Part shown: positions 43,588 through 63,080 of the stretch, piece by piece | Layout: each line of letters starts with the position of its first letter | Numbering within the stretch: position 1 is the first letter of the stretch | Assembly: GCA_964544755.1 (NCBI GenBank) | Contig: CAZJDL010000003.1 | Coordinates: 6,959-70,958, forward strand | Direction: 5' to 3' | Length of the DNA: 64,000 nt | Source of the DNA: an uncultured Pseudomonadales bacterium | GTDB lineage: Bacteria > Pseudomonadota > Gammaproteobacteria > Pseudomonadales > JAUIET01 | Program-made: the position numbers and the translations under genes | Notes under the pieces: model-generated | Seen by the model: the letters and a program-made list of their open reading frames with translations, nothing else | Databases searched by the model: none | What the model was told of the DNA's origin: nothing

Positions 43588-43975
43588 GGGCTTCACATTG
43601 GTCGAAGTGTTAGTCGCGCTGGCGGTGCTCGCCATTGCGCTGCCGGCCTTGCTGTTTAATATCGCCGAGCAACTCAGCAGCCTCGACTATATGCGCGAAA
43701 AGTCGATGGCGCATTGGGTGGCGATGAACAAAATGACCGAGCTGCGCTTGCAGAACGAACATCTCGATTATCTGCCGCGGGACAAACTAAACGGTTCTTC
43801 CATGCTGGCCGAGCGTGAGTGGTTCTGGACAGTCGAAACCAAAAAAACGGTGAGTGATATTGTGCTGCGTGTCGATATCAAGGTGCGCAAAACCGACGAC
43901 GACAAAGATCAGGCGCTCGCAACGGTCAGCAATTATTTTCAACTGCCGGTCGATACGACGCTTGCCCGACCATGA
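43571..43975 (+). CDS. gspI: type II secretion minor pseudopilin GspI
   Basis: Leader MKNNSKG|FTLVEVLVALAVLAI. 134 aa, the expected position and size. Confidence 0.88.
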   Translation: MKNNSKGFTLVEVLVALAVLAIALPALLFNIAEQLSSLDYMREKSMAHWVAMNKMTELRLQNEHLDYLPRDKLNGSSMLAEREWFWTVETKKTVSDIVLRVDIKVRKTDDDKDQALATVSNYFQLPVDTTLARP

Positions 43976-45686: not shown

Positions 45687-45711
45687 TGATATCCACAGCG
45701 GGGATGCGACA

Positions 45712-47411: not shown

Positions 47412-47415
47412 CGCG

Positions 47416-48207
47416 GTGCGGGCATTAAGTTTACCGTCGAGCTTGCAGGCTTACCGCCGCTTCAGCCTGCCGATTATTCTGCTGTTAGTGCTGCTGTTGA
47501 TCTTCAGCATGCCGGCGCGGGTATTCCTGTCTTTTATTGATATCACTCAGTTCGGCTTATATGCGCAAGGAGTGAGTGGTCCGTGGTACGCCGCCAGGGC
47601 CGGGCGAGTGCGGCTGCAGACGCCCACTGTGGCGGTCGAGCTGACGCATGTGAAATGGCGCGTGAAGCCGCTGGCGTTGCTGCGTGGGCGTTTTATGCTG
47701 GCGCTTGACGCCGAGTTTGCCCAGCGCCCGGTGAAGGCGGTAGTGGGCGCCGGGCTTGATGGACGCGTATTCGTGCAGCATCTGACCGCCGCCGTGCCAA
47801 TGCGGGAGTTAGCGCCGCTGATGACACAGCTGATAGTTCCCCTCGACGGCCAAATCAACCTGCAAGATGTTTCCCTGCAGCTGCGGCGGCGCTGGCCGGA
47901 AGAGCTGCGCGGCAAGGTGTTGTTGACCGATGTGGCGTTGACACTACCTACCCAGTTGCTCAAGGTGGGTGATGTGTTAATCGGCCTTGGAAAGCAGAAC
48001 GAAGACATTCTATTGGCCATTATCGAAAACAGCGGTCCGCTGCATCTGGGTGGCCAGCTCACACTGGCGGCTGAGCGCGGCTTCGAGCTGCGGCTAAACA
48101 GCACGCCTGGAGAGCAACTGAGTCCTGAATTGCGTATGCAAATGCAGGCGATGCTTGGCAATCCGGTCAACGGCCAATTCAATTTTCGCTACCGAGGTGC
48201 CTGGTAA
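47416..48207 (+). CDS. gspN: type II secretion system protein GspN
   Basis: 263 aa with an N-terminal TM helix. Last gene of the gsp operon. GTG start 4 nt after the gspM stop. Assigned mainly by position and size. Confidence 0.7.
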   Translation: MRALSLPSSLQAYRRFSLPIILLLVLLLIFSMPARVFLSFIDITQFGLYAQGVSGPWYAARAGRVRLQTPTVAVELTHVKWRVKPLALLRGRFMLALDAEFAQRPVKAVVGAGLDGRVFVQHLTAAVPMRELAPLMTQLIVPLDGQINLQDVSLQLRRRWPEELRGKVLLTDVALTLPTQLLKVGDVLIGLGKQNEDILLAIIENSGPLHLGGQLTLAAERGFELRLNSTPGEQLSPELRMQMQAMLGNPVNGQFNFRYRGAW

Positions 48208-48345: not shown

Positions 48346-51294
48346 ATGTGTTTCCATGAACTGAATAAACGTCTACCTAGTGTTGCTGCTACTTTGCTGC
48401 TGACAGCCGTGCTGGCGGGTTGCGGCAGTAGTAATAGCGGCGATTCGCTGGCAATCGACGAAGGCGACAAATCCAGTGGTGATTTCAAAATCGCCTATGT
48501 GAAGCGCTCGGTCGATTCGGTTGGCAATCCGACCGACGCCGGCCGCTTTCGCGCCGGCGGTGATTTGTTTATCCGAGACTTGTCGGCGGGTGCCGCCGAC
48601 GAGACCAATATTACCGGCGCATTAACCAACGGCACTGGCGACGTGTCTGACCTGGAAGTTTCTTACGACGGCACCCGGTTGGTGTTTTCAATGTGTTTTG
48701 ACGACCACACCTGGGACATCTGGGAGTATAACGTCGACACTGGCGAGCTGCGCCCGATTATTGCCGACGACGCGATTGCCGATCAAGGCGACGATCACGA
48801 CCCGGTCTATCTGCCCGATGGCCGCATTGTATTTTCTTCCAATCGGCAGACCCGCAGCGCCTTCCTGCAGTTTCAGCAAGGTATTCCGCGGCCCTATAAA
48901 TACCGCGATGAATACCAGCGCGAAGCCACCTCTGCATTACACGTGATGAACCCCGACGGCAGCAACATACGCCAGCTTTCATTCAACCAGAGCCACGACC
49001 GCAACCCCACCGTGTTGCGCAGTGGTGAAATAATGTACGCGCGCTGGGACCACTTCGGCAATCGCAATCATATGCCGGTCTATACAATGAACCCGGATGG
49101 CACCAATGTGTCGCTGTTATACGGCGCATTCAGCGGCGTAAATAGCTTGCCGCACCCGCGCGAAATGGCCAACGGCAACATCCTCAGCACGGCCATGCCA
49201 CTGGCTTCCACCTACGAGGGTGGCGCGCTAATGGAGATTGACGTCAAAAATTTCCTTGAGATCGACCAGCGGGCGCCGGTCGACAGCACTGCACCCGGCT
49301 TTGACCCCAACCTGTTGCCGGCGGAAGACGCCGAAGGGCAACGGCAGGTCACTTTTAATCCAATCAATACCAATAAAGGCATTTCCGGGGGAGGGCGTTA
49401 TAGCGCACCGCACCCGCTGTGGGACGGTAGCAACCGCGCGCTGGTGGCCTGGTCGCCGACCCAGCCCGAAGAAGTGATGAACGTGATCACCGGCGAACTG
49501 GAAATGCAAGAAGGGTTGCCCGTGTATGGCCTTTATATGCTCGATCTGAATGACCAGTCTCAGCAACCGATCGTATTGGCGGAAATTGGCTCGGGTCAGT
49601 CTGTGGTTGAGGGCGTGGCCATCCAGCCGCGCTCGCCGGCCGATGTGCCCGCGGTCATCGCCGACCCGGACCTGAGCGGCGATCTGTCTGATCGGGGCAT
49701 GGCCGTTTTAAACATAAAAAGCGTATACGATACCGATGGGCTGGGCAGCATGGGCGAGAGCATGCTGGTCGGCAATGAAGCCATACCGCAGCGACTGGCA
49801 CCGGCAGGCGACAGCCGCGAGACGATCGCTGATCTTGGCCAACTTAAAGATCCGACCTCGGTGTTTCGCAATGACCCGGCGCTTAAAAGGCCGGCGCGTT
49901 TCGTGCGTGTGACCAAAGCGGTAGCGACCCCGCCGGCCATGAACAAAGATACGATCAGCGCCAACGACATGGAAATGCAGCAAATCGTGGGTTACGGCGA
50001 GGTTGAGCCGGACGGATCGGTGAAAATAGAAGTACCGGCAGAAACCGCGGTCGCTATCAGCGTGCTCGACGACCAGGGTCGGGCCATTCAGGTGCATACC
50101 AATTGGCTGCATTTGCAGCGCGGTGAAGAGTTGACCTGTAACGGTTGCCATTCGCCGCGCCGTGGCACGCCGATCAACGGCCCCGGTTTTACCGGCGATC
50201 ACCCAAATACGACTGCCGCTGGTTTGGCTGAAGAAGGCGAGACCATGGCGGAAACGCGCGGCCGCCTTAACCCCGCTGCCTTGCAGCCCATGCAAGACAT
50301 ACTATTCCGCGATTTTTGGTCGGACGCAACCACGCCCACCGCGCCGGAGCCCGACATTACCTTTGACTATTCGCTGCTCACTACGGCGGCTCCCGCCGAT
50401 GGTCTGATCAACTACCCCGAGCATATTCAACCGCTGTGGAACAAAGCCTGCGTGTCCTGCCATAGTGCTGGCGCGCCGGCCGCGGGGCTCGATCTTGGCG
50501 CCGCCATCGACCAATCCGTCGGCGGCAACGGCCGCATGACTTCCTATAACGAACTGACGGTGGGTGAGCCGCTCACGGGGGCGGGCGGTTTACCCGCCGT
50601 TGTTCAAGTCGATGGCAATATTGACATCGAGCGTGACCCGGCAATCGTTGAACAGGGCGGTTCTGCCGATGGCAGTCGGGCCAGCCGCCTGATCGAACTG
50701 CTCTATGGTGAAGAGCTGCGCGCCGCGCTGGGCCTCAACGGCGACAGCATTCATCCGGGTTTGCTGAATGCTTCCGAGCGGCGCCTGGTGACTGAATGGG
50801 TGGACCTCGGTGCGCAATATGTCAACACGCCGTTTGAGCGCGGGCCGAACAACCCGGACGGCTCGCTTGGCGATCTGTTGTTAGGCACATTTCGCGCTAC
50901 GGCGCCGACCTTGGACGGCGCCGAATTTACCGATCGCGTATACCCCATACTGATAGATCGTTGCGCAGATTGTCACCAGCCACGCGGCGATGCCAGCGTA
51001 CAAGCACCCGCGGCGGCTAACCTCGGCCCCGGCGGTTTTATTCTTACCGGCGACGCCAGGGGCGATCTCAATATTACCCTGGCGATGATTGCCGACGGCG
51101 CCGACCCTGCCGCTACTGCGTTGCTGGCCAGGGCCGCCTCCAATGGGGCGACGGGTAACCCGGTGCATCCGTTGATATTTGACCCGGTGGCGGGCCAGGT
51201 ACCCGTGCTGTCGGCTGATGGGGCGAATGATCCGAACAGCAGTAATGCCGACTATCAGGCCATATTTGACTGGATCAGCAACGTCGGGCAATAG
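48346..51294 (+). CDS. large lipoprotein with TolB-like (PD40) beta-propeller repeats and three CXXCH motifs (two in Planctomycete-cytochrome-C-like context)
   Basis: Lipobox LLLTAVLAG|CGSS. PD40-like repeats (YDGTRLVFS, YLPDGRIVFSSNR, MNPDGSNIRQLSF, MNPDGTNVSLLY). CNGCH at nt 50137-50151, CVSCH at 50449-50463 (IQPLWNKACVSCHS) and CADCH at 50962-50976 (VYPILIDRCADCHQ). Confidence 0.8.
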   Translation: MCFHELNKRLPSVAATLLLTAVLAGCGSSNSGDSLAIDEGDKSSGDFKIAYVKRSVDSVGNPTDAGRFRAGGDLFIRDLSAGAADETNITGALTNGTGDVSDLEVSYDGTRLVFSMCFDDHTWDIWEYNVDTGELRPIIADDAIADQGDDHDPVYLPDGRIVFSSNRQTRSAFLQFQQGIPRPYKYRDEYQREATSALHVMNPDGSNIRQLSFNQSHDRNPTVLRSGEIMYARWDHFGNRNHMPVYTMNPDGTNVSLLYGAFSGVNSLPHPREMANGNILSTAMPLASTYEGGALMEIDVKNFLEIDQRAPVDSTAPGFDPNLLPAEDAEGQRQVTFNPINTNKGISGGGRYSAPHPLWDGSNRALVAWSPTQPEEVMNVITGELEMQEGLPVYGLYMLDLNDQSQQPIVLAEIGSGQSVVEGVAIQPRSPADVPAVIADPDLSGDLSDRGMAVLNIKSVYDTDGLGSMGESMLVGNEAIPQRLAPAGDSRETIADLGQLKDPTSVFRNDPALKRPARFVRVTKAVATPPAMNKDTISANDMEMQQIVGYGEVEPDGSVKIEVPAETAVAISVLDDQGRAIQVHTNWLHLQRGEELTCNGCHSPRRGTPINGPGFTGDHPNTTAAGLAEEGETMAETRGRLNPAALQPMQDILFRDFWSDATTPTAPEPDITFDYSLLTTAAPADGLINYPEHIQPLWNKACVSCHSAGAPAAGLDLGAAIDQSVGGNGRMTSYNELTVGEPLTGAGGLPAVVQVDGNIDIERDPAIVEQGGSADGSRASRLIELLYGEELRAALGLNGDSIHPGLLNASERRLVTEWVDLGAQYVNTPFERGPNNPDGSLGDLLLGTFRATAPTLDGAEFTDRVYPILIDRCADCHQPRGDASVQAPAAANLGPGGFILTGDARGDLNITLAMIADGADPAATALLARAASNGATGNPVHPLIFDPVAGQVPVLSADGANDPNSSNADYQAIFDWISNVGQ

Positions 51295-51612
51295 CGAACG
51301 ACACTCAACCCGGTATGTGTCGCGCAGCGTTTTTGGCGTGGCGAAAGCGGCAATATTACCAACGTACGGCACCATTTATGTGCGCTTTTTTTGCGCGCCA
51401 ATTATTTGTGATGCTGTACCATAGCCGTTTTATGTGGCGCGGGTTTTTGCCGCGCCATGAGCGTCACGCTACTACTAATATAATGTGTTTACAGGAAAGC
51501 CAGCCATCGATCTTCAAACCAGCGACACGCGACTACCCGATTCTGGCATGCAGCAGCGGTGCTTTTTCGCCGTGCCAGCCGCTAACGATTTGTTCAATTT
51601 CATTGCCGACTT

Positions 51613-51655
51613 AGTGTCCCGTGGCGAATAAACTGTTTATTCGCCACGGGACACT
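51613..51655. repeat. perfect 20-bp-stem palindrome (43 nt) in the spacer before the beta-barrel/TPR locus
   Basis: agtgtcccgtggcgaataaa-ctg-tttattcgccacgggacact. All 20 pairs checked base by base as Watson-Crick. No adjacent T-tract. Confidence 0.85.
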
Positions 51656-51708
51656 GGCCTTAATTTGTTCGCGCCCCGATTGCACTGCCTGTTAGGCATT
51701 CACCGCAC

Positions 51709-52446
51709 ATGAATTATCGTCTCTGGAACGCGTCTATTTTTTTGCTTGCCTTTTTGCTGCCGCAATTCGTGCAGGCTCAGCCGCTACTGCTCGTCGTGCA
51801 GGAAGTTTACATCGACTTGCATACGGGCCCCGGCCGCGGCTTTCCCCGCCAATTCGCCGTCGAACGTGGCGCCACTATCCGCGTGATCAAACAACGCACC
51901 GATTGGGTCAAGATCCAGACTGAGCGCGGCAGTAGCGGCTGGGTAAAAAGTAGCGCTTTGGAAAAAACGCTGACCACGGCGGGCCTGCCGGTACGACTCA
52001 GCCGCACGCGCTTTAGCGATTATCGGCAGCAGCGCTTCGAACTGGGCGTCGGCGGGGGTTACTACGCGGCTGAACCCGAGGTTTTCGCGCGCGCCGGTTA
52101 CCGTTGGTCGAAAATTTTCAGCACCGAATTGGGTGTCGCGCAGGTGACAGGCGATTTCTCCAATTCGAAATTGATTATGGTTAATGTTCTGACCCAGCCC
52201 TTCCAGTGGGAGCGCTGGTCGCCGTTTTTAAGCCTCGGCATTGGGCGCAACTATAACAATCCCAATCGCAGCCTGATTAACGCTGAAAAAACAGACAGTG
52301 ATTTTTTTAATTTTGGTTTGGGAACGCGTTTCTATTTAACGCGATCTTTAGTGGTCAGGGCGGAATATAAACGCTATAACTTAGTAGAAGGCGATGAAAA
52401 TGATGGTCAGAATGAATACAACATCGGCTTATCCTTCTTCTTTTAA
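51709..52446 (+). CDS. outer-membrane beta-barrel protein with N-terminal SH3-like domain
   Basis: Signal peptide MNYRLWNASIFLLAFLLPQFVQA. SH3b-like segment (IDLHTGPGRGFPRQFAVERGATIRVIKQRTDWVKIQTERGSSGWVKSSAL). Beta-strand-pattern C-terminal half ending YNIGLSFFF (OMP C-terminal Phe). Confidence 0.8.
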   Translation: MNYRLWNASIFLLAFLLPQFVQAQPLLLVVQEVYIDLHTGPGRGFPRQFAVERGATIRVIKQRTDWVKIQTERGSSGWVKSSALEKTLTTAGLPVRLSRTRFSDYRQQRFELGVGGGYYAAEPEVFARAGYRWSKIFSTELGVAQVTGDFSNSKLIMVNVLTQPFQWERWSPFLSLGIGRNYNNPNRSLINAEKTDSDFFNFGLGTRFYLTRSLVVRAEYKRYNLVEGDENDGQNEYNIGLSFFF

Positions 52447-52449
52447 AGG

Positions 52450-53094
52450 GTGGGGCAAGTTGTGAAGACGTTCACGTTTTTGTGTATGGTAGCGCTGGTC
52501 TATTCGCTGAATAGCGCTGCGCAAGAGCTGCCGGAAGCGAATGAGAGTGAAGTTATTCCGTCTGACATGGAGCGCGAAGAATATACGGTGCCGAAAATCG
52601 ACACCGAGAATTTTGAGGTCGGCCTGCATTATGGCGGTCTCAATATAGATGATTTCAACACATCGGGGTCTTACGGTGTGTTTTTGGATTATCACGTGAC
52701 GGAAGATGCTTTTATTGAGCTTAACTATGGTCAAGCCGAGGTGCTGGATACGCCGTTCCGGCGCATTGGAGCGCCTATCTTTCCGCAGCAGAAGGAAGAC
52801 ATCAAGTATTACAACTTGTCGGTGGGTATCAACGTGTTGCCAGGGGAGATATTTATTCTCGACAAATACGTGCTCGGTTCCACTTTTTATGTGATCAGTG
52901 GCCTGGGCAATACCGAGTTTGTCGGCGACGACAAGTTTACGTTTAACCTCGGTTTTGGTATTCGCTTGCTGCTAACGGATTCGATCAGCTTGCGGGCCGA
53001 AGCGCGGGACTTGATGTTCGACAATGACATTTTGGGCAAAGAAGAACTAAAACATAATTTTGAATTCAGGGCCGGAGTGAGTTTCTTTTTTTAG
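52450..53094 (+). CDS. outer-membrane beta-barrel domain protein
   Basis: Signal peptide (FTFLCMVALVYSLNSAAQ). Alternating strand pattern, C-terminus FEFRAGVSFFF. GTG start; an alternative GTG lies at 52462. Confidence 0.78.
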   Translation: MGQVVKTFTFLCMVALVYSLNSAAQELPEANESEVIPSDMEREEYTVPKIDTENFEVGLHYGGLNIDDFNTSGSYGVFLDYHVTEDAFIELNYGQAEVLDTPFRRIGAPIFPQQKEDIKYYNLSVGINVLPGEIFILDKYVLGSTFYVISGLGNTEFVGDDKFTFNLGFGIRLLLTDSISLRAEARDLMFDNDILGKEELKHNFEFRAGVSFFF

Positions 53095-53111
53095 TAGTAT
53101 GAGGTTTTGGT

Positions 53112-53624
53112 ATGCAAACATTCACAAAGTTGCGCTCCGGTGCGTGCAAGGTTTTGTTGGTCGCGGCGCTTAGTCTGCCGCATATTAGTTCGGCGACGCA
53201 GCAGTTGCAGCCGGCGCCTAATTTCACGTTACCCAGTATCGACGGCGCTAATTTACGGCTTAGCGAATATCGTGGCGACGTCGTGATGGTCAATTTCTGG
53301 GCAACCTGGTGTGGTCCGTGCCGGCAGGAAATGCCGCTGCTGGACAAAATGTATAAGCGCTACAAGAAAGCTGGTTTCACCCTGTTGGGCGTCAATGTAG
53401 AGAAGGACCGCGCCAAAGCACAACGCGTTGCCAAGCAGCTCAATGTCAGCTTCCCGATATTGTTCGACTCGGCACAGCAGGTTGTTGACTCCTACAAGGT
53501 AGGATCCATGCCGAGTACGGTACTGGTCGACCGTGACGGTAATATCCGTTACGTACACCTGGGTTACAAAGCCGGCGACGAAAAACTGTACAGCAAAATG
53601 GTCAAAGAGTTATTGATAGAATGA
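53112..53624 (+). CDS. TlpA/ResA-like periplasmic thiol:disulfide oxidoreductase
   Basis: Signal peptide. Thioredoxin-fold active site VNFWATWCGPCRQEMP. Downstream GVN......A and PSTVLVDRDGNI motifs. Confidence 0.88.
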   Translation: MQTFTKLRSGACKVLLVAALSLPHISSATQQLQPAPNFTLPSIDGANLRLSEYRGDVVMVNFWATWCGPCRQEMPLLDKMYKRYKKAGFTLLGVNVEKDRAKAQRVAKQLNVSFPILFDSAQQVVDSYKVGSMPSTVLVDRDGNIRYVHLGYKAGDEKLYSKMVKELLIE

Positions 53625-53733
53625 CGTTTTAACCTAGCTGTCGCGCGCGTCGTTTCAGCGTCGCGAGACTGCCTCGCGGCTCTGCTGCTGCGGTGCAAAA
53701 AGTACTGATTTAGCCATTTAAACGGAAGCCACT

Positions 53734-54243
53734 ATGTCGAAGTTTTTGATGACCACATTGCTGCTGCTGAGTTATTGCGTTAGCGCGCAAGACGAGACCG
53801 CCAGCGTGGCCGATCAGGTTCAAGACCTGAAGCAAACGGTGATCAAGCTGAATCGGGATTTATTCATTCTGGAAGAAGAGCTGTTGTTTCCCGCTAATAC
53901 TCAGGTTGCGTTTTTTGTGTCGATGGACGTTGGCGAATTTTTTCAGCTCGATACCTTGCAGCTAAAAATCGACAATAAAACCGTCGCCAATTACTTGTAC
54001 ACCGACCGCCAGATCGACGCCCTGTTTCGTGGCGGGGTGCAGCGTTTGTTTGTCGGCAACGTGCGCAACGGTGACCATGAGATCAGCGCATTTTTTACCG
54101 GCCGTGGGCCCAAGGGTCGCGACTACAAGCGCGCGACCAGCTATCGCTTCACCAAAGACAGCGACGCGAAATACCTTGAACTTAAAATCAAGGATTCCGA
54201 GCGCATGCATCAGCCTGAATTTACGGTAAAAGAGTGGCAATAG
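53734..54243 (+). CDS. secreted hypothetical protein (169 aa)
   Basis: Signal peptide MSKFLMTTLLLLSYCVSAQ. Its stop lies 1 nt before the next gene's start. No family recognised. Confidence 0.7.
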   Translation: MSKFLMTTLLLLSYCVSAQDETASVADQVQDLKQTVIKLNRDLFILEEELLFPANTQVAFFVSMDVGEFFQLDTLQLKIDNKTVANYLYTDRQIDALFRGGVQRLFVGNVRNGDHEISAFFTGRGPKGRDYKRATSYRFTKDSDAKYLELKIKDSERMHQPEFTVKEWQ

Positions 54244-54244
54244 C

Positions 54245-56185
54245 GTGCTTTTTTCGCGTAACGCTATCGGCATAAACGCGCGCCCCGTTGGCCGCGGTTT
54301 ATGTTTGTTGTTGAGCGTTTGCCTGCTGGCGCTAGCGCTGCGGGCAGGCGCCGAGCAGCCCGCCGCAACGGCAAAGGCGCGCACTACGGCGCAAGACCTG
54401 GGCTACGGTGTCATGCTGTACGAATACTTCCAGCACAATTATTTGCCGGCCTTGATCGAGCTGGAAGTGGCGCGTAAGCGCGGCGGAATTCAAGGTCATG
54501 GCAGCCATCCCGATTTGATGGAAGGTGGAATCAAATTGTCATACGGCATGGACCGCAGTGCCGAAAAGATCTTTAATCGCTTGCTGGCGGACTATCCAGA
54601 CCCGGCCGTGCGCGACCAGGCCTGGTTCTATCTGGGTAAGATCGCCTACCAGCGCGCCGAGTTCGAGCGTGCCGCCAATACTTTTGACAAAATCGGTGAC
54701 CAGTTACCCGCTAATTTGCGCGACGAGTTTTTATTTCTCACCGCCAATCTGCTCATTAAGGCCGGCCAGTTAGACCGCGCCCGGCAGCGCATCGACAAGC
54801 TCGACGCCGAATCGCCGTGGCAGCCGTATGCGCGCTTTAATTTGGGGGTCGCCTATGCGGCGGAAAATCCCGATCAAGCCGGCAATGCGTCACAACAAGC
54901 CATCGCGGCGTTTGCCAAGCTGGCCGACTATGCCAAAGACAGCGATGAGCTGAAGGCGTTAAATGACCGTGCTAGCCTTGCCGCCGGTTATGTGCTGCTG
55001 CGCGCGGGCCAGCAGCCCGATGCTATCGAGGCATTCAAGCGCGTGCGCCTGCAAGGCCCTTATGCGTCGCAAGCCATGTTGGGTTACGGTTGGGCGGCGG
55101 CTGAGCTAAAAGATTATAAGCTGGCTTTAACGCCGTGGCAGCGTTTGTCCGAGCAGTCCCTGATAAGCCCCAGCGTGCAGGAATCCTTTCTCGCTGTTCC
55201 GTTTGCCTACGAACAACTGGGTGCGGAACGACAGGCGCTGGAAGAATTTGAGCGCACGGCCGCAGCCTACGAGGTCGAACTGCAACGCATCGACCAGGCG
55301 CTGGCCACCTTGCAAGACGCAGATATCATGCAACTATTTGTGCGTGAAATGGGCGCCGGAGCCAGCAACTGGATTATCACGGGCAATGACCTCGATGTTA
55401 AGCCGCAAACCCCGTATCTGGCGCATCTGATCGCACAACACGAGTTTCAGTCGGGCCTGATGGATCTGCGGGACGCGTACGCGCTGCAAGCCAACTTGCA
55501 ACACTGGGAAGATAAAGTCGCCACTTTTTCCTATGCCATTGAGAGTTATCAAATCGCGCGCGATAAAAAGCGGGATGGCGCGGACCAACGCGCCTTGAAT
55601 CAACTGCCAGAGCTTGAGCAACGGCACGATCAGTTAGCGACGCGTATTGCGGCGATCGAGAAAGGTGGCGCCGTGCTAGCCCTGCTGCCAAACGCGGAAC
55701 AGGCCAGGGTGCGCAAGCTGGCGGCCGTGCAAACCACGCTTAACGCTGCGCAGAGCAGCGGCGCTGACGCCGCTGAAGAACAACATCGACTGGATATGCT
55801 GCGTGGTGTTTTACTGTGGGAAGCGGCGGAACAGTACCCGGAAAATTTACGCGCAGCCAAGAAAGCACTGACCGACAGCGCGCTAATTCTAGACAAGGCG
55901 TCGGCGACAAAAACGCAAGTGCAGGGTCTGTTGGCAACATCCGACACGCGGCCTGCGCAGGAACGCGTGCGTGTCGGGCAACAGCAGTTGCAGGCCGCAC
56001 GTGCGCAAAGCGATCAAACCATCGCCGCCGCGCGCCGCTACCTGGCTGAGTTGGCCAGTGCTGAACTTGGTGAGCAACGGCGCAATATCACTACTTATTT
56101 GTCGCAGGCGCGGTTGGCGATTGCTCGTTTGTACGACACCGGAACCCGGCGCGCGCTTGAACCTGGCGGTGGAGGCGAGCCGTGA
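54245..56185 (+). CDS. secreted TPR/coiled-coil protein (646 aa)
   Basis: Signal peptide (LCLLLSVCLLALALRAGA). N-terminal half has TPR-like A/L/Y-rich repeats (AWFYLGKIAYQRAEFERA, ARFNLGVAY, AMLGYGWAA). C-terminal half is Q/A/L-rich coiled coil. GTG start. Confidence 0.78.
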   Translation: MLFSRNAIGINARPVGRGLCLLLSVCLLALALRAGAEQPAATAKARTTAQDLGYGVMLYEYFQHNYLPALIELEVARKRGGIQGHGSHPDLMEGGIKLSYGMDRSAEKIFNRLLADYPDPAVRDQAWFYLGKIAYQRAEFERAANTFDKIGDQLPANLRDEFLFLTANLLIKAGQLDRARQRIDKLDAESPWQPYARFNLGVAYAAENPDQAGNASQQAIAAFAKLADYAKDSDELKALNDRASLAAGYVLLRAGQQPDAIEAFKRVRLQGPYASQAMLGYGWAAAELKDYKLALTPWQRLSEQSLISPSVQESFLAVPFAYEQLGAERQALEEFERTAAAYEVELQRIDQALATLQDADIMQLFVREMGAGASNWIITGNDLDVKPQTPYLAHLIAQHEFQSGLMDLRDAYALQANLQHWEDKVATFSYAIESYQIARDKKRDGADQRALNQLPELEQRHDQLATRIAAIEKGGAVLALLPNAEQARVRKLAAVQTTLNAAQSSGADAAEEQHRLDMLRGVLLWEAAEQYPENLRAAKKALTDSALILDKASATKTQVQGLLATSDTRPAQERVRVGQQQLQAARAQSDQTIAAARRYLAELASAELGEQRRNITTYLSQARLAIARLYDTGTRRALEPGGGGEP

Positions 56186-59049
56186 TACGCCATAGGCTTC
56201 CTGTTCTTATGCTGCTGACATTGCTGCTCAGCGGTTGTTCCACTATGTTCGGAGATCCTGCTCGCGAGCAGGATAAAACGTTGGCCGACCTGGAGGCGGT
56301 TGAGCCGCCAGCGGTTGACCGGCGCTTGCCCGAAAAGACCGCTGCACAGGTGATGCAGAGTTATATGGAATTGCTCGCCGTGGTGCAAGATCCTGACGTA
56401 AAAGCTGCCGCAAAGTCACGCTTGGGTGGCTTGATGATGCTGGACAACGAGAGCAAACAATTCGGCGACAACGTTACCGATGACGCCAGGCTGGAGCGTT
56501 ACTATAGCGACGTAATCAAGTTGTACGAAGAGTTGCTGGAGGAATTTCCCGACCGTGCCGGCAACGACCGCTTGCTGTATCAATTGTCGAAGGCTTACGA
56601 TCTCGACGGTCGCTCGGAACAGTCGAACGCGGTATTGGAAAAACTGGTAAGCCAATATTCCGATTCGGACTATGCCGTCGAGGCGTTCTTTCGGCGCGGT
56701 GAAACGCTGTTCTCAAACGCCGACTACGAAGGGGCGCAAGCAGCCTATGAACGCACTATCGGTTTCGGCGAGAAAACACCTTACTACGACAACGCATTGT
56801 ATATGCTTGGCTGGACCCAGTTTAAACGCAATCGATACGAAGATGCGTTACCGTCATTTTTGCAGGCGCTGGACCGTACCTTGCCGGCAGGGGTGCCGTT
56901 AAAACAATTATCGAAAACCCAGCGTGAACTGGTGGAAGACGCGTTACGGGTTGTGGCGATCATATTTTCGTATCTGGACGGCGCGCAATCGATTCAGCAG
57001 CTGATTGCCGAGCAAGGACCGCGTCATTACGAACCCTTGTTATACCAGCGTCTTGGCGAGCTCTACCTGAGCAAGAAGCGCTTCAAGGATACGGCTGATA
57101 CTTACGGGAGTTTCGTCGCGGCTTACGGTAGCAGCGATCTTGCGCCGCGCTATCACGTTAAACAAATTGAAGCCTACGAAAAGGGCAATTTCCCGACCGA
57201 GATCTTGCCTGCAAAAGAAAATTTCGTCGTTAGCTACGGCATCACCAGCGATTACTGGAAGGCGAAGGGGCCTGAAGTGCGTGCCGAGATTGAACCGCAC
57301 CTGCATCAATACCTGGATGAGCTGGCGAAAAGTGCGCACGCCACTGCGCAGCAGCAAAATAAACTGTGGCTGGCGGCGCAAGACGAACGTGCCAAAAAGA
57401 AACTCAAGTTCACCGAGGATGATATTCAACAGAGCTTCCGCACGGCGGGACGCTGGTATCAGGAATTTATCGACACTTTCCCACTCGACAAGAAAGTAGA
57501 GGAGATCTGGTTTCTGTTAGCTGAGAGTCAATACGAGGCGCGGGATTATGCGGCGGCAATTGAGTCTTACGAATACATCGCGTATCAATTTGAGGGTGAG
57601 AAAAATAAAGTCGAAGCGGGTTATGCGGCGCTGTTAGCCTACGACAAGCAACTTGCCAGCGTGCCGGCGGCAGAAAAAGACGCTTGGCAGAAGCGCAAGA
57701 TCGACAGCGCGGCGCGTTTCGGCGCCACCTTCCCCGACGACTCCCGCGCGCCGGTCGTGCTGGCCCGAGTGGCAGAAGACCTGCTGGCAGACAAACAATA
57801 CGAATTGGCTCGGCAAAATGCGACCGCGCTGGTTAATTGGGACAAGCCGATCGGCAAAAAACTCGAGCTGGCAGGTTGGCTGGTGTTGGCCCACGCTGAG
57901 TTTGAGCTACAGCAATACCGCGCGGCCGAGCAAGCCTATACGCGTGTTTACGCTTTGCTGCCAGAAAAAGACAAGCGCCGCAAAGAGATTAACGAGAACC
58001 TTGCGGCCAGCGTTTACAAACAGGGCGAGGGCTTGCTTGCCGAAGGCAAAACCAGCGCCAGCGTCGAGCAGTTTTTACGCGTCGCACAAATTGCGCCCGG
58101 CTCAACGGTGCAGGTCAATGCCGAGTTTGACGCGGCCACGCACCTGCTGAGTCTGAAGCAATGGCCGCGTGCGATTACCGTGTTAAAACGCTTTCGCAAC
58201 AACTATCCAGATAACGAATTGACAAAACAAGTACCGGCGAAACTGGTGTTGGCGTATCAAAAGAACGAGCAGTGGCGCGCCGCGGCCGATGAGCTGGATT
58301 ATATGGTGGTGAATAATATTGATCCGGAAAATAAGCGCGACGCCATGTACCTGGCAGCCGAGCTGTATGAGAAGGCGGGTGACGAGCGGCGTGCTATCCG
58401 CCAATATGATCGCTATGTAAACCAGTTCCCCGAACCGTTCGACGAGCGAATTGAGGCCATGCACAAAATTACCGAGCTGCATACGGCCTTGAACCAGAGC
58501 AGCGAAAAACGCCGCTGGTTGCGCAAAATCATAGACGCCGACGCCCGCGCTGGCACCGCGCGCAATGATCGCTCCAAATACCTTGCCGCCCAGGCGTCCA
58601 TGGTTTTTGCCGACGAGGCGCGCGATCAGTTTAACGCCGTCAGTTTGAGGTTACCGTTGAAAGCAAGCCTGAAGAAAAAGAAAAGGGTGCTCAAACAAGC
58701 GCTGCAAGCGTATACGAAAACGGCGGATTACGGCGTCCAGGAGTTTGCCACGCAGGCGAATTTTAATATCGGTGAAATCTACACGCGGCTGAGTCAGGAC
58801 TTGATGCGCTCACAGCGGCCGAAGAATCTGTCGGCGCTGGAGACAGAGCAATACGTGGTGTTGTTGGAGGAGCAGGCTTTTCCCTTTGAAGAGGAGGCCA
58901 TTGAAATTCACGAAACCAATGCGCAGCGTAGTTGGTCGGGAGTCTACGATAACTGGGTTAAAGCAAGTTTCCGTTCGCTAGCCAAACTGATGCCTGGACG
59001 GTATAACAAATCTGAAAGGAAGAAGGCGTACAGCGATGCCATTCAATAA
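56182..59049 (+). CDS. large TPR-repeat lipoprotein (955 aa)
   Basis: Lipobox LTLLLSG|CSTM. Many TPR/YbgF-like repeats (DRLLYQLSKAYDLDG, AFFRRGETLFSNADYEGA, ALYMLGWTQFKRNRYEDA, etc.). GTGA overlap with the upstream gene. Confidence 0.85.
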   Translation: MIRHRLPVLMLLTLLLSGCSTMFGDPAREQDKTLADLEAVEPPAVDRRLPEKTAAQVMQSYMELLAVVQDPDVKAAAKSRLGGLMMLDNESKQFGDNVTDDARLERYYSDVIKLYEELLEEFPDRAGNDRLLYQLSKAYDLDGRSEQSNAVLEKLVSQYSDSDYAVEAFFRRGETLFSNADYEGAQAAYERTIGFGEKTPYYDNALYMLGWTQFKRNRYEDALPSFLQALDRTLPAGVPLKQLSKTQRELVEDALRVVAIIFSYLDGAQSIQQLIAEQGPRHYEPLLYQRLGELYLSKKRFKDTADTYGSFVAAYGSSDLAPRYHVKQIEAYEKGNFPTEILPAKENFVVSYGITSDYWKAKGPEVRAEIEPHLHQYLDELAKSAHATAQQQNKLWLAAQDERAKKKLKFTEDDIQQSFRTAGRWYQEFIDTFPLDKKVEEIWFLLAESQYEARDYAAAIESYEYIAYQFEGEKNKVEAGYAALLAYDKQLASVPAAEKDAWQKRKIDSAARFGATFPDDSRAPVVLARVAEDLLADKQYELARQNATALVNWDKPIGKKLELAGWLVLAHAEFELQQYRAAEQAYTRVYALLPEKDKRRKEINENLAASVYKQGEGLLAEGKTSASVEQFLRVAQIAPGSTVQVNAEFDAATHLLSLKQWPRAITVLKRFRNNYPDNELTKQVPAKLVLAYQKNEQWRAAADELDYMVVNNIDPENKRDAMYLAAELYEKAGDERRAIRQYDRYVNQFPEPFDERIEAMHKITELHTALNQSSEKRRWLRKIIDADARAGTARNDRSKYLAAQASMVFADEARDQFNAVSLRLPLKASLKKKKRVLKQALQAYTKTADYGVQEFATQANFNIGEIYTRLSQDLMRSQRPKNLSALETEQYVVLLEEQAFPFEEEAIEIHETNAQRSWSGVYDNWVKASFRSLAKLMPGRYNKSERKKAYSDAIQ

Positions 59050-59719
59050 CGCGCAAACTGCTTTATCGCGGCCTTGTCTCGCTATCGTTCTGTTGCTCAG
59101 CTTGGCGGCGTGCTCGACATTTACCGACAAACCGGCAACAATGCCGCCGCCGGCCGACGAGGAAGTCGTGGAACAAGGCGAAAAGGCGCCGCCGAAACTG
59201 CCGCCCAACCCGTACTACGACAAAATTCCGGCCACTAGCGATGCCGCCAGGCAACAATTTCAGCAAGGCGTGACCGCCATGCGGAACAATAATTGGTCGG
59301 TGGCGGCGTCGGTGTTTACCGACTTGGCGAAAAATCACCCTAATCTGTCGGGTCCACACCTGAACTTAGGCATTATTGCACGTCAACACGGTGATTTTGA
59401 TGAGGCCAAACAGCATTTTTCACACGCTATCGAGGTGAATCCAAGCAATCAGGAAGCGTATAATCAACTTGCCCTGCTGTACCGGAAGCAAGGCGAGTTC
59501 AAACAAGCCGAAAAAACCTTCCTGCAAGCGATCAAAATCTGGCCGGGTTACGCCAGCATTCAACTGAACTTAGGTATTTTGTACGAGCTTTATATGGGTG
59601 AAATGCAGTCTGCGTTGCAACATTATGAAAACTATCAGCAGTTGCAAAGCGAGCCGGATAAAAAGATTGCCGGCTGGATCATAGATTTACAGCGTCGTAT
59701 TAAGGTGGCCAGTCGATGA
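59036..59719 (+). CDS. TPR-repeat lipoprotein (227 aa)
   Basis: Lipobox LLLSLAA|CSTF. TPR repeats (GPHLNLGIIARQHGDFDEAKQHFSHAIEVNPSNQEAYNQLALLYRKQGEFKQAEKTFLQAI). 14-nt overlap with the upstream gene. Confidence 0.85.
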   Translation: MPFNNAQTALSRPCLAIVLLLSLAACSTFTDKPATMPPPADEEVVEQGEKAPPKLPPNPYYDKIPATSDAARQQFQQGVTAMRNNNWSVAASVFTDLAKNHPNLSGPHLNLGIIARQHGDFDEAKQHFSHAIEVNPSNQEAYNQLALLYRKQGEFKQAEKTFLQAIKIWPGYASIQLNLGILYELYMGEMQSALQHYENYQQLQSEPDKKIAGWIIDLQRRIKVASR

Positions 59720-60021
59720 AAGCAAAATATCTGAATGTTTTATTGCCGGCTGTTTTGTTGTTGGGGTTGCAAGCTGTCCATGGTGAAGACGAACTGAATC
59801 TGCAAGGCACTTTTAAAGGCAACCGTGAGCAACCGCGTGTGCTGTATATCGTGCCCTGGCAGCAGCCGGGCGGCCCCGAGGGACTCGATCGTCCGGTCAA
59901 CGGATTGATAGACAATGTACTGACACCGATAGACCGCGATGTGTTTCAGCGCGAATTGAAGTACTTCGAGGTGTTGTCGAAGGGCGAACAGGAGTCGGCG
60001 GGCGGCATTCTGTCCAAGTAA
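59716..60021 (+). CDS. small secreted protein (101 aa)
   Basis: Signal peptide MKAKYLNVLLPAVLLLGLQAVHG. ATGA overlap with the upstream TPR gene. No family recognised. Confidence 0.7.
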   Translation: MKAKYLNVLLPAVLLLGLQAVHGEDELNLQGTFKGNREQPRVLYIVPWQQPGGPEGLDRPVNGLIDNVLTPIDRDVFQRELKYFEVLSKGEQESAGGILSK

Positions 60022-60307
60022 TCTGTCACACTGCGTAGTTTTAGAATTGTTGGTGGCCACGATTTGGTCACTTGCGGCTACACTTGTAAGTAGCGGAAGC
60101 GTAGCTCGGTGACCGGGCAATCATTCCAGCGGGGCGGTCCAGGCTGGAAGCGAGCATTAACGCGTACCAGCGTGATGTTCGAGATGTTGATGTCAAGACC
60201 GCAAGTAAAAGCGTTGCGCAGCGGCGTTGGAGTAGCCACGTTGTGGTGATACAGGCTTCAGTGTTCATGCGCAGCTAATGAGTTAATTGTAAGTTAAGGG
60301 TAAAGGC

Positions 60308-60985
60308 ATGGACACGTATACAACCATCGTCACATTTTTTCAAAGTGGCGGCCCGTTTATGTACCCCATCTCTATTGTGTTAGTGGTTGGATTGGCTATT
60401 GCAATTGAGCGGTACATTTTTCTGGCAGCGGCAAAGACGACCAATCAACGCGCGTTTAACAAAATGCTGCCGTTGTTACAGAAGCGTGATTATCGAGGCG
60501 TGCTCAACATTGCGCAAAAATCCAAGGCGCCGGTTACGCGAATTATCGCAGCTGGGGTGGCGCGCACAGCAACCACCCAGCGGCGCGACGAAGTCGAATA
60601 CGCGATGGACGAAGGCGTGCTCGAAGCGTTGCCGCGGCTGGAAAAGCGCACCCCCTATTTGGCGACACTCGCCAATATTGCGACCTTGTTGGGTTTGCTC
60701 GGCACCATTATCGGCTTGATCGCGGCATTTACCGCGGTTGCCAACGCTGACCCGGCCGAAAAGGCGAGCTTGTTGTCGCAAAGTATTTCGGTCGCGATGA
60801 ATACCACGGCGTTTGGCCTGATGGCCGCGATTCCTCTGCTGTTGTTGCACGCTTTCCTGCAGTCAAAAACCACTGAGATTGTCGACAGTCTGGAAATGGC
60901 CGGCGTGAAGTTTCTTAACCTGCTCGGTGATCACAAGGTGGTGACCTCGCAGTCGCGCGCCACCGATCCACGCAAAAGAGCGTAA
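60308..60985 (+). CDS. MotA/TolQ/ExbB family proton-channel protein
   Basis: 225 aa with three TM helices. Conserved C-terminal region LATLANIATLLGLLGTIIGLI.AF.......P......L...IS.AM.TTAFGL..AIP. Confidence 0.9.
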   Translation: MDTYTTIVTFFQSGGPFMYPISIVLVVGLAIAIERYIFLAAAKTTNQRAFNKMLPLLQKRDYRGVLNIAQKSKAPVTRIIAAGVARTATTQRRDEVEYAMDEGVLEALPRLEKRTPYLATLANIATLLGLLGTIIGLIAAFTAVANADPAEKASLLSQSISVAMNTTAFGLMAAIPLLLLHAFLQSKTTEIVDSLEMAGVKFLNLLGDHKVVTSQSRATDPRKRA

Positions 60986-60991
60986 CTCCCG

Positions 60992-61600
60992 GTGCGTCGA
61001 ATTCGCCATAGGCATCAAGAAGATGCCGAGCTGAACATCACTGCGTTTATGAACCTGATGATTGTGCTGGTTCCGGTGCTGTTGATGACAATGGTATTTT
61101 CGCAGATTACCGTGTTGGAGCTTACCCTGCCCGACGCGGTGACCAGCGCCGATACTCCGGATGTGGACAAACATCTTGAGCTTGTCGTTCGCAAAAACGA
61201 ACTGCAGGTTTATTACCCGCGTGGCTTCCTGCTAAAGCGTGTTCCCCTCAAACCGGTCGAGGAATCCGCCACTGCTGGTGCCGGTGAGAGTGACGGCAAA
61301 GTACAAAAAAAGCGCGAAGACTACGATTACGAGCTGCTATCCGATGTGTTGCAGGAAGCGAAGCGCCTGATCCGCGAAGCTGGCGAGAAGGCAGCGCAGG
61401 AGAAAGGCGTAGAGTATAAGGAAAAACGCGATATCACTATTTTGTCTGAGCAGGATACCGACTACCAAACCATCGTCAGCCTGATGGACGCCTCGCGTTC
61501 CTTCAAGGCGGTCGTCGCCGGCTCGGTGGTAGACGCCGAACTGTTTCCGGAAATTTCCCTCGGTGACGCACCCGAGGTACCCGAGGTCGCCAGTCAATGA
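60992..61600 (+). CDS. ExbD/TolR family protein, atypically long (202 aa) with a charged insertion
   Basis: N-terminus LNITAFMNLMIVLVPVLL (ExbD TM signature) and C-terminal ExbD-like Y..IV.LMDA. A ~60-aa acidic/basic insertion lies between them. GTG start. Confidence 0.8.
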   Translation: MRRIRHRHQEDAELNITAFMNLMIVLVPVLLMTMVFSQITVLELTLPDAVTSADTPDVDKHLELVVRKNELQVYYPRGFLLKRVPLKPVEESATAGAGESDGKVQKKREDYDYELLSDVLQEAKRLIREAGEKAAQEKGVEYKEKRDITILSEQDTDYQTIVSLMDASRSFKAVVAGSVVDAELFPEISLGDAPEVPEVASQ

Positions 61601-62124
61601 AGCGTTCCGGGCACACCAAACGTATGGCCAGGCACCAGGCGCGGTTGAAGAAACCTTCCAGCCTGAACCTGGTATCACTGATGGATATATTCACCATTCT
61701 GGTGTTTTTCCTGCTGGTGAATTCGTCTGAAGTTGAAGTGTTGGAGTCTAACAAAGATATTAAGCTGCCGGAGTCGGTGGCCGAGCAGCGGCCGAAAAAT
61801 ACCGTGGTCGTCATGGTAAACAACAAGGATCTGATCGTGCAGGGCCGCAAAGTAGCCGACGTCGCCGATGTATTGAGTTCCAGTGAATTGATCATCGGCA
61901 CGCTGGATAAAGAACTGAAATACCTGAGTTCCCGCCGGCCGCAGCTGAGCGAAGAAGAGCAGAAAAAGGGCCGCGCGGTGACCATTCTGGGTGATGAGAA
62001 AGTACCTTACCAGCTACTGAAGCGCGTGATGACCACCTGCGCCAAGGCGGATTTCCGCAATATTTCACTGGCAGTCAACAAAATTGAAGCGCCAACCGAC
62101 CTCTCTCCGGAACAGGAGGGATAA
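61597..62124 (+). CDS. ExbD/TolR family protein
   Basis: 175 aa. LNLVSLMDIFTILVFFLL TM signature and periplasmic domain (ILGDEKVPYQLLKRVMTTCA). ATGA overlap with the upstream gene. Confidence 0.88.
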   Translation: MKRSGHTKRMARHQARLKKPSSLNLVSLMDIFTILVFFLLVNSSEVEVLESNKDIKLPESVAEQRPKNTVVVMVNNKDLIVQGRKVADVADVLSSSELIIGTLDKELKYLSSRRPQLSEEEQKKGRAVTILGDEKVPYQLLKRVMTTCAKADFRNISLAVNKIEAPTDLSPEQEG

Positions 62125-62126
62125 CA

Positions 62127-63080
62127 ATGACAACGATGCAAATGGCGCGCGGCCCGGTATTGCTTCTGCCCTGGTCGGCAACAAAAGAAGACGACGAGAA
62201 ATTTCGCAAATATATATTGGTAGCACTGCTGCTATTTGTGATAGTGGGCGTTATTGTACCCTTGCTGCCCGTGCCGGAAATCGAGCGCGACGAGCTGGAG
62301 GAAATCCCGCCGCAGTTGGCAAAAATCATATTGGAGAAAAAACAGCTGCCGCCGACGCCACCACCGCCCGCGGCGAAAAAAGAGAAGCCGGTTGAAAAGA
62401 AAGTTAAACCCAAGCCGAAACCGAAGCCCAAGGTAAAACCAAAGCCTAAACCGAAACCGGTGCAAACGGTCGAGCAGGCGCGCGACAAAGCGGCGCTGTC
62501 GGGCTTGCTGCAGTTCAAAGATGACCTGCAAGAGATGCGCGAAAGCGTTGACAAAGAAAAGCTCAGTAACAATCAGTTATCGCGCGCGGCTGGCGACGCA
62601 AGAAAAATCGAGCGCTCGGTTATCACCGGTAAAGCCGGCGGTACCAGCGGTGGCATCAATACTGCCAGGTTGAGCCGCAATACCGGTGGCGCCGCCTTGT
62701 CGGGCCGCGAAACCACGCGTGTCAGCGGCCCTGTCGCCAAGCTTGGCAAAGGCGACGGCAGCGGAGCTGGCGGTAGCGGTGCCGGATCATCAGGACGCAG
62801 CGATGAGTCGGTGCGCAAGGTATTTGACCGCAACAAAGGTTCGATTTTCTCGATTTATAACCGAGCCTTGCGCAAAGACCCTTCACTGCAAGGTAAGGTG
62901 ACCATTAAACTGGTGATTGAGCCCAGTGGCGCGGTTTCCAGCGTTAAGCTGGTGTCGAGCGAGCTGAATAATCCCACGCTGGAGCGCAAGCTGATTGCGC
63001 GCGTCAAATTGATTAATTTTGGCGCTGAGGAAGTGGCGCGCACCACGGTAAACTATTCGTTCGATTTCCTCCCTTTCTAG
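62127..63080 (+). CDS. TonB-like energy transducer with AgmX/PglI-type C-terminal domain
   Basis: N-terminal TM helix (ILVALLLFVIVGVIVPLL). Pro/Lys linker (PPTPPPPAAKKEKPVEKKVKPKPKPKPKVKPKPKPKP). Gly/Ser-rich region. C-terminal TonB-fold segment IFSIYNRALRKDPSLQGKVTIKLVIEPSGAVSSVKLVSSEL. Confidence 0.85.
   Translation: MTTMQMARGPVLLLPWSATKEDDEKFRKYILVALLLFVIVGVIVPLLPVPEIERDELEEIPPQLAKIILEKKQLPPTPPPPAAKKEKPVEKKVKPKPKPKPKVKPKPKPKPVQTVEQARDKAALSGLLQFKDDLQEMRESVDKEKLSNNQLSRAAGDARKIERSVITGKAGGTSGGINTARLSRNTGGAALSGRETTRVSGPVAKLGKGDGSGAGGSGAGSSGRSDESVRKVFDRNKGSIFSIYNRALRKDPSLQGKVTIKLVIEPSGAVSSVKLVSSELNNPTLERKLIARVKLINFGAEEVARTTVNYSFDFLPF

Follow-up and report, generated by a model that had tools for sequence, protein, structure and literature searches.

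A nine-gene locus of an uncultured Pseudomonadales bacterium as a likely standalone Agl–Glt/Nfs-type core, with accessory outer-membrane and redox genes

Luciano et al. 2011 (PMC3169522) divided the Myxococcus gliding genes into two groups. They detected Group A (gltA, B, F, H, I, J, K) in Myxococcales and Bdellovibrio alone. Group B, made up of gltC, gltD, gltE, gltG, aglR, aglQ and aglS together with one extra gene, occurs in Gammaproteobacteria, Betaproteobacteria, Geobacter and Fibrobacter, with reported hosts including Cellvibrio, Marinobacter, Saccharophagus and Hahella. It was described there as a ‘core complex of unknown function’, from which the Myxococcus gliding and spore-coat machines were proposed to descend; most of the bacteria that carry it have no documented gliding or sporulation. 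Here we describe a locus of this kind in a 64,000-nucleotide (nt) stretch of DNA from an uncultured Pseudomonadales bacterium (contig CAZJDL010000003.1), hereafter the window, whose numbering is used throughout. The locus comprises 12 open reading frames (ORFs) on the + strand at 51709–63080, named g1 to g12, and is preceded by a gene for a haem lipoprotein of 982 amino acids (aa), P982 (Table 1). We propose that g4–g12 most likely constitute a standalone Agl–Glt/Nfs core, a force transducer of Tol/Ton-like design that is driven by the proton motive force and spans the envelope, and that the window adds a further, uncultured member to the group.

Agreement with the published clusters carries this proposal. 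For Cellvibrio japonicus, Table S3 of the 2011 study lists CJA_3319 (660 aa) as gltC, CJA_3318 (964 aa) as gltD and CJA_3317 (244 aa) as gltE, leaves CJA_3316 unlisted, and continues with CJA_3315 (231 aa) as aglR, CJA_3314 (181 aa) as aglQ, CJA_3313 (173 aa) as aglS and CJA_3312 (323 aa) as gltG; in these assignments gltC stands for MXAN_2541, gltD for MXAN_4870, gltE for MXAN_4869 and gltG for MXAN_4867. The same pattern is seen in Marinobacter (Maqu_1814 to Maqu_1807), Saccharophagus (Sde_3567 to Sde_3560), Hahella, Shewanella and Teredinibacter (PMC3169522). In the same order, the window encodes proteins of 646, 955, 227, (101), 225, 202, 175 and 317 aa, the last of which, g12, has CJA_3312 and Maqu_1807 as its GltG-like counterparts. 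The initial annotation had called the locus a standalone Agl–Glt/Nfs-type core, and g5–g12 do match the published clusters in order and length. Its statement that reduced cores were reported in 2011 was likewise correct, and is an already published result. All of this lies in a single cluster, with a contiguous channel gene and two ExbD/TolR genes, a bitopic protein of the AgmX/PglI type, and tetratricopeptide repeat (TPR) proteins in GltC/D/E-like order, for which we used length classes of about 550–690 aa (GltC-like) and about 930–1020 aa (GltD-like). The published core and the window locus share gene order, sizes, single-cluster organisation and overlapping taxa (relatives of Cellvibrio, Marinobacter and Hahella). 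They differ in that the window and most related loci add g4 5' of the GltC-like gene, and in that a thioredoxin/DUF3570/ApbE cassette, unmentioned in PMC3169522, is joined to the locus; the window also has two outer-membrane (OM) barrels, an SH3 domain and the haem lipoprotein.

The same arrangement recurs widely. In a scan that used an alignment of g6 relatives and covered one genome per species, at least 582 species genomes had a relative of this large TPR protein. From these, 80 loci were kept and compared by tblastn with the window proteins and by ORF clustering; 48 of them were informative, having the whole core and 6 kb or more of sequence upstream. Wherever the contig reaches far enough, the run g4–g5–g6–g7–g8–MotA–ExbD–ExbD–TonB-like is collinear, as seen in Cellvibrionaceae, Halieaceae, Spongiibacteraceae, Alteromonadaceae, Marinobacter, Hahellaceae, Steroidobacteraceae, Woeseiaceae, Thiodiazotropha, Acidiferrobacterales and Burkholderiales. 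In 58 loci g4 is accompanied by the channel and TonB-like genes in an order collinear with that of the window, and such recurrence of one gene order over several orders of Gamma- and Betaproteobacteria goes far beyond what chance would give. The loci of Cellvibrio, Marinobacter and Hahellaceae share the gene order of the window, with identities of 30–73%, and those of Cellvibrio show the published CJA protein lengths, linking the window to the clusters already in print. Homology searches with g6, g2 and g4 gave, among the matches listed, gamma- and betaproteobacterial proteins throughout. These comparisons correct two boundaries. All 12 genes had been described as one locus, but the conserved unit is the nine genes g4–g12, with g1–g3 as accessories, and the accessory module begins upstream of g1, at 48346. 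Three other loci (L023, L025 and L028) have a pair of g5/g6-like TPR genes without an adjacent motor; these may represent the second, paralogous cluster type tabulated in 2011 for Marinobacter, Saccharophagus and Hahella.

Several observations weigh against the identification of g4–g12 as such a core. The NCBIfam equivalog models for GltE and GltG matched only far under their cutoffs (39 bits for GltE on g7; 52 bits, E 5e-14, for GltG on g12, on which the GltJ model scored 34 bits), and at E <= 10 no Glt-specific NCBIfam model matched g4, g5, g6 or g8. The putative Glt and Agl assignments of the window genes draw on the published table and on synteny. Counterparts of GltH, GltI, GltJ and GltK are absent from the window locus and from the recurrent locus families, g12 has no match to the FHA domain that GltG carries in the cytoplasm, and just 14 of the 48 informative loci have the barrels, which track P982 and DUF3570 and not the core. 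The function of the core, moreover, has never been shown in any gammaproteobacterium. Later papers (2013, 2020) still treat it as unknown, suggesting a ‘basal transport machinery’ or possibly protein secretion, and a 2024 paper adds nothing on the core complex; literature searches on locus tags (CJA_3318 and others), on TIGR04565 and in eLife supplements found nothing.

Compared with the M. xanthus Nfs (NfsA–H) and Glt (GltA–K) systems and the AglRQS motor, the window locus shares a TolQR-type motor, an inner-membrane protein with a TonB fold, three TPR proteins and a small secreted protein. It also has two small OmpA/OprF-like barrels before the GltC/NfsC-like gene, candidate counterparts by fold and position, in an order collinear with nfsA–G. 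Besides lacking the FHA domain and GltH, I, J and K, it differs from M. xanthus in having its motor genes inside the cluster and g3 and g4 intercalated, and in having neither CglB nor a link to AglZ/MglA.

The motor and the TonB-like arm bring the locus close to the Tol and Ton systems. The nearest curated model for g9 is TolQ (63 bits, cutoff 221) and its nearest solved structures in the PDB are TolQ and ExbB (E 2e-8), PDB sequence searches with g12 and g9 returning no Myxococcus entries. Identity of g9 across loci is 52–84%, and by eye the Thr residues in transmembrane helices (TM) 2 and 3 that are known from E. coli TolQ seem to be kept. The TolR model, which leads the curated models for g11, reaches 31 bits (cutoff 127). 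At the TM column of E. coli ExbD D25 and TolR D23, g11 has Asp in 48/48 loci, and g10 has Asn in 41 of the 48, the window included. Because g11 keeps the Asp and g10 mostly carries Asn, the plug of the stator would be an asymmetric heterodimer with a single protonatable site. g12 consists of about 28 cytoplasmic residues, one TM helix, a (KP)n linker, a Gly/Ser-rich stretch and an AgmX/PglI C-domain. It had been annotated as of AgmX/PglI type, not canonical TonB, and this stands: NF033768 scores above its cutoff, while TonB_C remains below both curated ones (18.7 bits against 24.6 in Pfam; 23.0 bits against 27.1 for TIGR01352).

Such resemblances could mean that the locus is simply a second, paralogous Tol–Pal-like system for OM tethering, constriction or envelope integrity, and among curated models TolQ and TolR do score highest for g9 and g11. 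The YbgF/CpoB model gives g6 a summed score of 92 bits, relatives of g6 are named ‘TolA-binding protein’ by the Joint Genome Institute (JGI), and P982 has TolB-like PD40 repeats. We nevertheless think a Tol–Pal-like identity quite unlikely: the TolQ score is a fraction of its cutoff, the conserved core holds no Pal or TolB orthologue, two ExbD-type subunits take the place of a single TolR, the C-domain of g12 is AgmX/PglI, and the published phylogeny places the genes with Agl/Glt, not with Tol (PMC3169522). An ordinary TonB–ExbB–ExbD system energising TonB-dependent nutrient receptors would account for the MotA_ExbB and ExbD domains and for the weak TonB_C match. It is very improbable given the C-domain scores of g12 and a motor locked in a single nine-gene order with TPR proteins. 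No receptor turned up either, in keeping with the initial annotation, among the five large window ORFs tested, and no protein family recurring in at least 4 of the 80 loci looks like one, although the absence of a linked receptor is weak evidence, since the receptors of TonB systems are often encoded elsewhere. In sum, what the locus has in common with Tol–Pal and TonB–ExbBD is a proton-driven stator of the 5:2 type, with the Asp kept in g11, and a periplasm-spanning protein that reaches OM partners. It departs from them in its heteromeric ExbD-type pair, with Asn in one member in most genomes, in its AgmX/PglI C-domain, in the lack of TolB, Pal and a TonB-dependent receptor, and in that large TPR lipoproteins are obligatory.

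The remaining conserved proteins fit the Agl–Glt/Nfs-type core as candidates for a platform at the OM. The lipoproteins g6 and g7 are probably OM-anchored, because the residue at position +2 is not Asp. The small secreted protein g8 was recovered as an ORF cluster in 54 related loci, over which its motif GNxEQPKVLYIVPW is near-invariant; the motif may serve as a beta-strand docking element. No Pfam or NCBIfam family model matches g8, and by size, signal peptide and position it is a candidate GltF/NfsF. It is probably the ‘additional gene’ of the 2011 paper, at the unlisted tags CJA_3316 and Maqu_1811, because of the locus-tag gap at CJA_3316; the text of the paper names no gene.

The ninth core gene, g4, is absent from the seven named core genes of Luciano et al. 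2011 and is hence a newly added member. It is the best-conserved member outside the motor, with 50–70% identity across orders. In a large protein database all of the scored candidates (8000/8000) matched g4, and a profile search gave 1333 clusters at 50% identity, of which 384 reached E <= 1e-30; a few database records mislabel such relatives as ‘AraC’. Neither Pfam nor NCBIfam (to E <= 10) has a family for g4. Its AlphaFold model, with a predicted local distance difference test score (pLDDT) of 79.5, has a long N-terminal helix followed by a beta-sandwich and finds no significant fold match in the PDB. In one metagenomic protein of 695 aa (P0503), a g4-like domain (residues 69–227) is fused to a TPR protein of the g5/GltC type (the g5 part at E 4e-41), a fusion that could also be a sequencing frameshift, since g4 and g5 lie only 1 nt apart in the window.

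Upstream of g4 the related loci carry a second conserved feature. Directly 5' of g4 and on the same strand, mostly at less than 100 nt, stands a thioredoxin gene in 16 loci, DUF3570 in 14 and ApbE in 12 (42/53 loci), and 46 of the 48 informative loci have at least one member of this cassette. Pfam confirms the families in proteins of the related loci (ApbE 275 bits, DUF3570 137 bits, DUF4266 84 bits). DUF4266, a small lipoprotein with a CXC motif that ends in GGGCGCN, and DUF3570, of about 400 aa and with the sequence VDxISGASIDV, which contains the D-x-I-S-G-A-S motif of this family in the related loci, lie between the thioredoxin gene and g4 (for example L012:6021-7428, L039:6094-7495 and L065:5857-7354, and in L001 and others); in Cellvibrionaceae it is often ApbE, a flavin transferase, that stands 5' of g4. 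In the window, tblastn with ApbE, DUF3570 and DUF4266 found none of the three, and only the thioredoxin, g3, is present, with a 110-nt spacer 5' of g4 in place of the cassette genes. L001, from the closest genome relative of the window, retains all three. Because the cassette adjoins g4 in most loci and L001 retains the missing genes, g3 is a conserved operon partner of the core and no incidental insert: it is what remains of a TlpA–DUF4266–DUF3570–ApbE cassette, which shares an operon with the core in most genomes. Flavinylation of DUF3570 by ApbE is experimentally established, and ApbE, DUF3570, a thioredoxin-like protein and DUF4266 together form an uncharacterised extracytosolic electron-transfer set (PMC8238504). 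The window thus differs from that set in keeping the thioredoxin alone, with the full set found between g3 and g4 in related loci. Méheust et al. 2021 (PMC8238504) make no mention of MotA, ExbD or TPR partners, and we found no mention of the link between cassette and core in the literature searched.

Haem-type proteins add to this picture. Of the 48 loci, 29 have large CxxCH lipoproteins alongside the core. The set of P982 and barrels is replaced, in Steroidobacteraceae, Halioglobus and related loci, by a conserved trio, namely a CxxCH protein of 250–440 aa, a Laminin_G_3/CxxCH lipoprotein of about 900 aa (c12) and a protein of about 550 aa with an N-terminus like that of twin-arginine (Tat) substrates (L011:~3000-7600, L042, L044, L053, L068 and about 14 more); two of the three proteins have no Pfam family. 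It is conceivable that the core is not a transporter of a polymer or adhesin but the mechanical partner of an OM thiol/flavin/haem electron-transfer module, its motor gating or energising redox reactions with the TlpA-like reductase, DUF4266, the flavinylated DUF3570 barrel, ApbE, and either P982 or c12. Reductive uptake or modification of an OM substrate would be one possibility, and the window would represent a pared-down form in which the reductase, the haem lipoprotein and two barrels are retained. The near-constant presence of the cassette, its place immediately next to g4, the Pfam identities, the proven flavinylation and the frequency of CxxCH lipoproteins all speak for it. We still regard this account as unlikely, if well worth keeping in mind: the window has lost ApbE, DUF3570 and DUF4266, so that the core persists without them nearby; core proteins have no conserved [S/T]GA[S/T] flavinylation motif or Cys pairs; the flavinylation survey is silent on motor partners; and gene linkage alone does not demonstrate a joint mechanism.

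The accessory genes upstream of g3 pose a related question. P982 has a lipobox (LAGC), a PD40 beta-propeller, a middle domain like that of the hydrazine synthase alpha subunit, and CxxCH motifs at residues 598, 702 and 873. It scores 65 bits on Pfam HZS_alpha, 65 bits on NCBIfam hydrazine_alpha (cutoff 800) and 27 bits on the TolB propeller, and its sole PDB match is 5c2v, the alpha subunit of hydrazine synthase (E 4e-9); the domain order is that of hydrazine synthase alpha, here in a non-anammox gammaproteobacterium. A P982 homologue stands directly 5' of a g1 homologue in 13–17 related loci. Between the two genes, a scan for terminator-like hairpins picked up, in the window, a palindrome with a predicted RNA fold of -38 kcal/mol (z = -7.1), unique in the window and followed by a weak T-tail, which may be a terminator or a protein-binding site; Rfam searches over 48–64 kb gave only spurious matches of microRNA models, on this palindrome. 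The barrels g1 and g2 are distant paralogues, the last two strands of g1 matching g2 at 42% identity (E 4e-6). The AlphaFold model of g2 (pLDDT 88.8) matches OmpA, NspA and OprF (4rlc) in the PDB at E 1e-7 to 2e-6, with a target-normalised TM-score of 0.73 against OprF 4rlc. Members of the g2 family have an N-terminal extension of about 30 residues, of low confidence in the model, with a conserved E-x-V-I-x-P…R-R…IDTENFE motif that could act as a TonB-box-like handle. Where g1 and g2 occur, a P982 homologue and a thioredoxin are always with them, and DUF3570 is in 13 of the 14 loci; in L003 and L004 the P982/barrel set is inverted and lies downstream of the TonB-like gene.

Whether these barrels are GltA/B- or NfsA/B-like is doubtful, and by fold, number and position we would give it roughly one chance in three. 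Two paralogous small barrels 5' of a GltC-like gene recall gltB-gltA-gltC and nfsA-nfsB-nfsC, and the TIGR04565 family of g2 bears the name ‘myx_plus’, pointing to myxobacteria. GltA and GltB were themselves modelled on the OprF barrel 4RLC. Both carry N-terminal extensions, and a TonB box has been proposed in GltB, to be pulled by the TonB_C domains of GltG/J. The 2011 survey, for its part, found GltA/B homologues in Myxococcales and Bdellovibrio only, and none outside Deltaproteobacteria (PMC3169522). P982, g1 and g2, together with g3, could be an OM/haem module in its own right that merely sits beside g4–g12, with barrels that are not partners of the GltA/B type. We rate this separation into two independent units as a substantial possibility, though short of even. 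In its favour, the module is missing in about 70% of loci, moves as a block (as the inversions in L003 and L004 illustrate) and is divided by a strong hairpin between P982 and g1, and the restricted distribution of GltA/B agrees with it. On the other side, the module, where present, always adjoins the core and, in 12 of 14 cases, shares its strand, and the mirrored barrel–barrel–GltC order, the family membership of g2 and its GltA/B-like N-terminal extension all argue for a connection.

For the Agl–Glt/Nfs-type core as we understand it, a mechanism can be sketched from the Myxococcus homologues and from Tol and Ton. Proton flow through five copies of g9 around the g10–g11 pair, in which only g11 carries a protonatable Asp, would cycle the conformation of g12. 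The C-domain of g12 would then engage an OM-proximal platform of TPR proteins and lipoproteins and do mechanical work at the OM, presumably by moving or gating a cargo. Its partners would be the lipoproteins g6 and g7 along with g5, g4 and g8, and in this genome perhaps also the barrels, the platform here probably being extended by the accessory set g1, g2, P982 and g3. In Myxococcus, AglR interacts with GltG, and GltA, GltB and GltC bind one another.

The locus offers three handles on the core complex: g4 as its ninth gene, the Asp/Asn asymmetry of the ExbD-type pair, and the near-universal operon link to a redox cassette, none of which we found in the literature searched. The redox link, if functional, would give a role to both the core complex and the DUF3570 system. 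The core is also present in tractable hosts, among them Cellvibrio japonicus, Saccharophagus degradans and Marinobacter.

The 12 ORFs, with the coordinates, domains, lipoboxes and tight junctions ascribed to them earlier, are all borne out by the window DNA, and the translations contain the SFFF ends of both barrels, the lipoboxes LLSGC (g6) and LAAC (g7), the (KP)n linker and IYNRALRKDPSLQGKV. Independent ENA/Logan gene calls, on public contigs whose g12 is identical to that of the window, give products of 227, 101, 225, 202, 175 and 317 aa for g7–g12. The junctions are translationally coupled, with a 1-nt gap (g4/g5), a GTGA overlap (g5/g6), a 14-nt overlap (g6/g7), ATGA (g7/g8 and g10/g11) and a 2-nt gap (g11/g12), and are interrupted by a 286-nt gap (g8/g9). 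Over the related loci the median gaps from g4 to g12 are 2, -4, -23, -4, +73, +13, -4 and -4 nt. The only sizeable one, of 73 nt, falls before the motor, which agrees with the proposed division into two operon blocks. Recent horizontal transfer of g1–g4, which their lower GC content might suggest, was rejected on the ground that GC at third codon positions (GC3) is uniform at 0.58–0.69.

Table 1. Features of the locus in window coordinates; bit scores are for the models named.
Feature	Position	Strand	Remarks
P982, 982-aa haem lipoprotein	48346..51294	+	first gene of accessory module, outside the range of the initial annotation
Palindrome, perfect 21-bp stem	51612..51656	+	between P982 and g1
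g1, secreted SH3 + small OM beta-barrel, SFFF end	51709..52446	+	SH3_3 36 bits, OMP_b-brl 43 bits; accessory
g2, 8-stranded OmpA/OprF-like OM barrel	52450..53094	+	OMP_b-brl; TIGR04565 OMP_myx_plus 135 bits (cutoff 60); accessory
g3, secreted TlpA/ResA-like thiol:disulfide oxidoreductase, WCGPC	53112..53624	+	AhpC-TSA/Redoxin domains
g4, 169-aa secreted helix + beta-sandwich protein	53734..54243	+	no Pfam/NCBIfam family; first gene of conserved core
g5, 646-aa secreted TPR + coiled-coil protein, GltC/NfsC-like	54245..56185	+	TPR matches; counterparts CJA_3319, Maqu_1814, Sde_3567
g6, 955-aa TPR lipoprotein (LLSGC), YbgF/BamD-like repeats, GltD/NfsD-like	56182..59049	+	counterparts CJA_3318, Maqu_1813, Sde_3566
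g7, 227-aa TPR lipoprotein (LAAC), GltE/NfsE-like	59036..59719	+	counterparts CJA_3317, Maqu_1812
g8, 101-aa secreted protein at GltF/NfsF position	59716..60021	+	no family; conserved motif GNxEQPKVLYIVPW
g9, MotA/TolQ/ExbB-type proton channel, AglR-like	60308..60985	+	MotA_ExbB 100 bits
g10, first ExbD/TolR paralogue, AglQ position	60992..61600	+	ExbD 44 bits; Asn replaces TM Asp
g11, second ExbD/TolR paralogue, AglS position	61597..62124	+	ExbD 65 bits; TM Asp kept
g12, bitopic TonB-fold protein, GltG-like without FHA	62127..63080	+	AgmX/PglI NF033768 73 bits (cutoff 40)

Of the wider neighbours, the type II secretion system (T2SS) genes reported next to the locus are there: a complete operon, gspC–N (C, D, E, F, G–N), occupies 36305–48207 and ends 139 nt 5' of P982. 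Besides the window, this adjacency is seen in 10 of the 48 loci, Cellvibrionaceae-like only, in which the gsp operon ends with gspN and is followed by ApbE and g4. We therefore treat it as lineage synteny and do not count a T2SS link as a defining feature. The exopolysaccharide (EPS) cluster noted earlier is likewise real, with Wzz/tyrosine-kinase and flippase genes at about 19–26 kb, some 25–30 kb away, but EPS genes lie outside the conserved neighbourhood. With the T2SS limited to one lineage and the EPS genes not conserved, gene context lends no support to the surface-polymer role that had been suggested, and favours periplasmic thiol/flavin/haem chemistry instead. The EPS region also contains a 679-aa ORF at 21965-24004 (+) that has no Pfam match at E <= 1e-5. 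Downstream of g12, the public contigs with an identical g12 continue into unrelated genes, for an FkbM methyltransferase and a rubredoxin.

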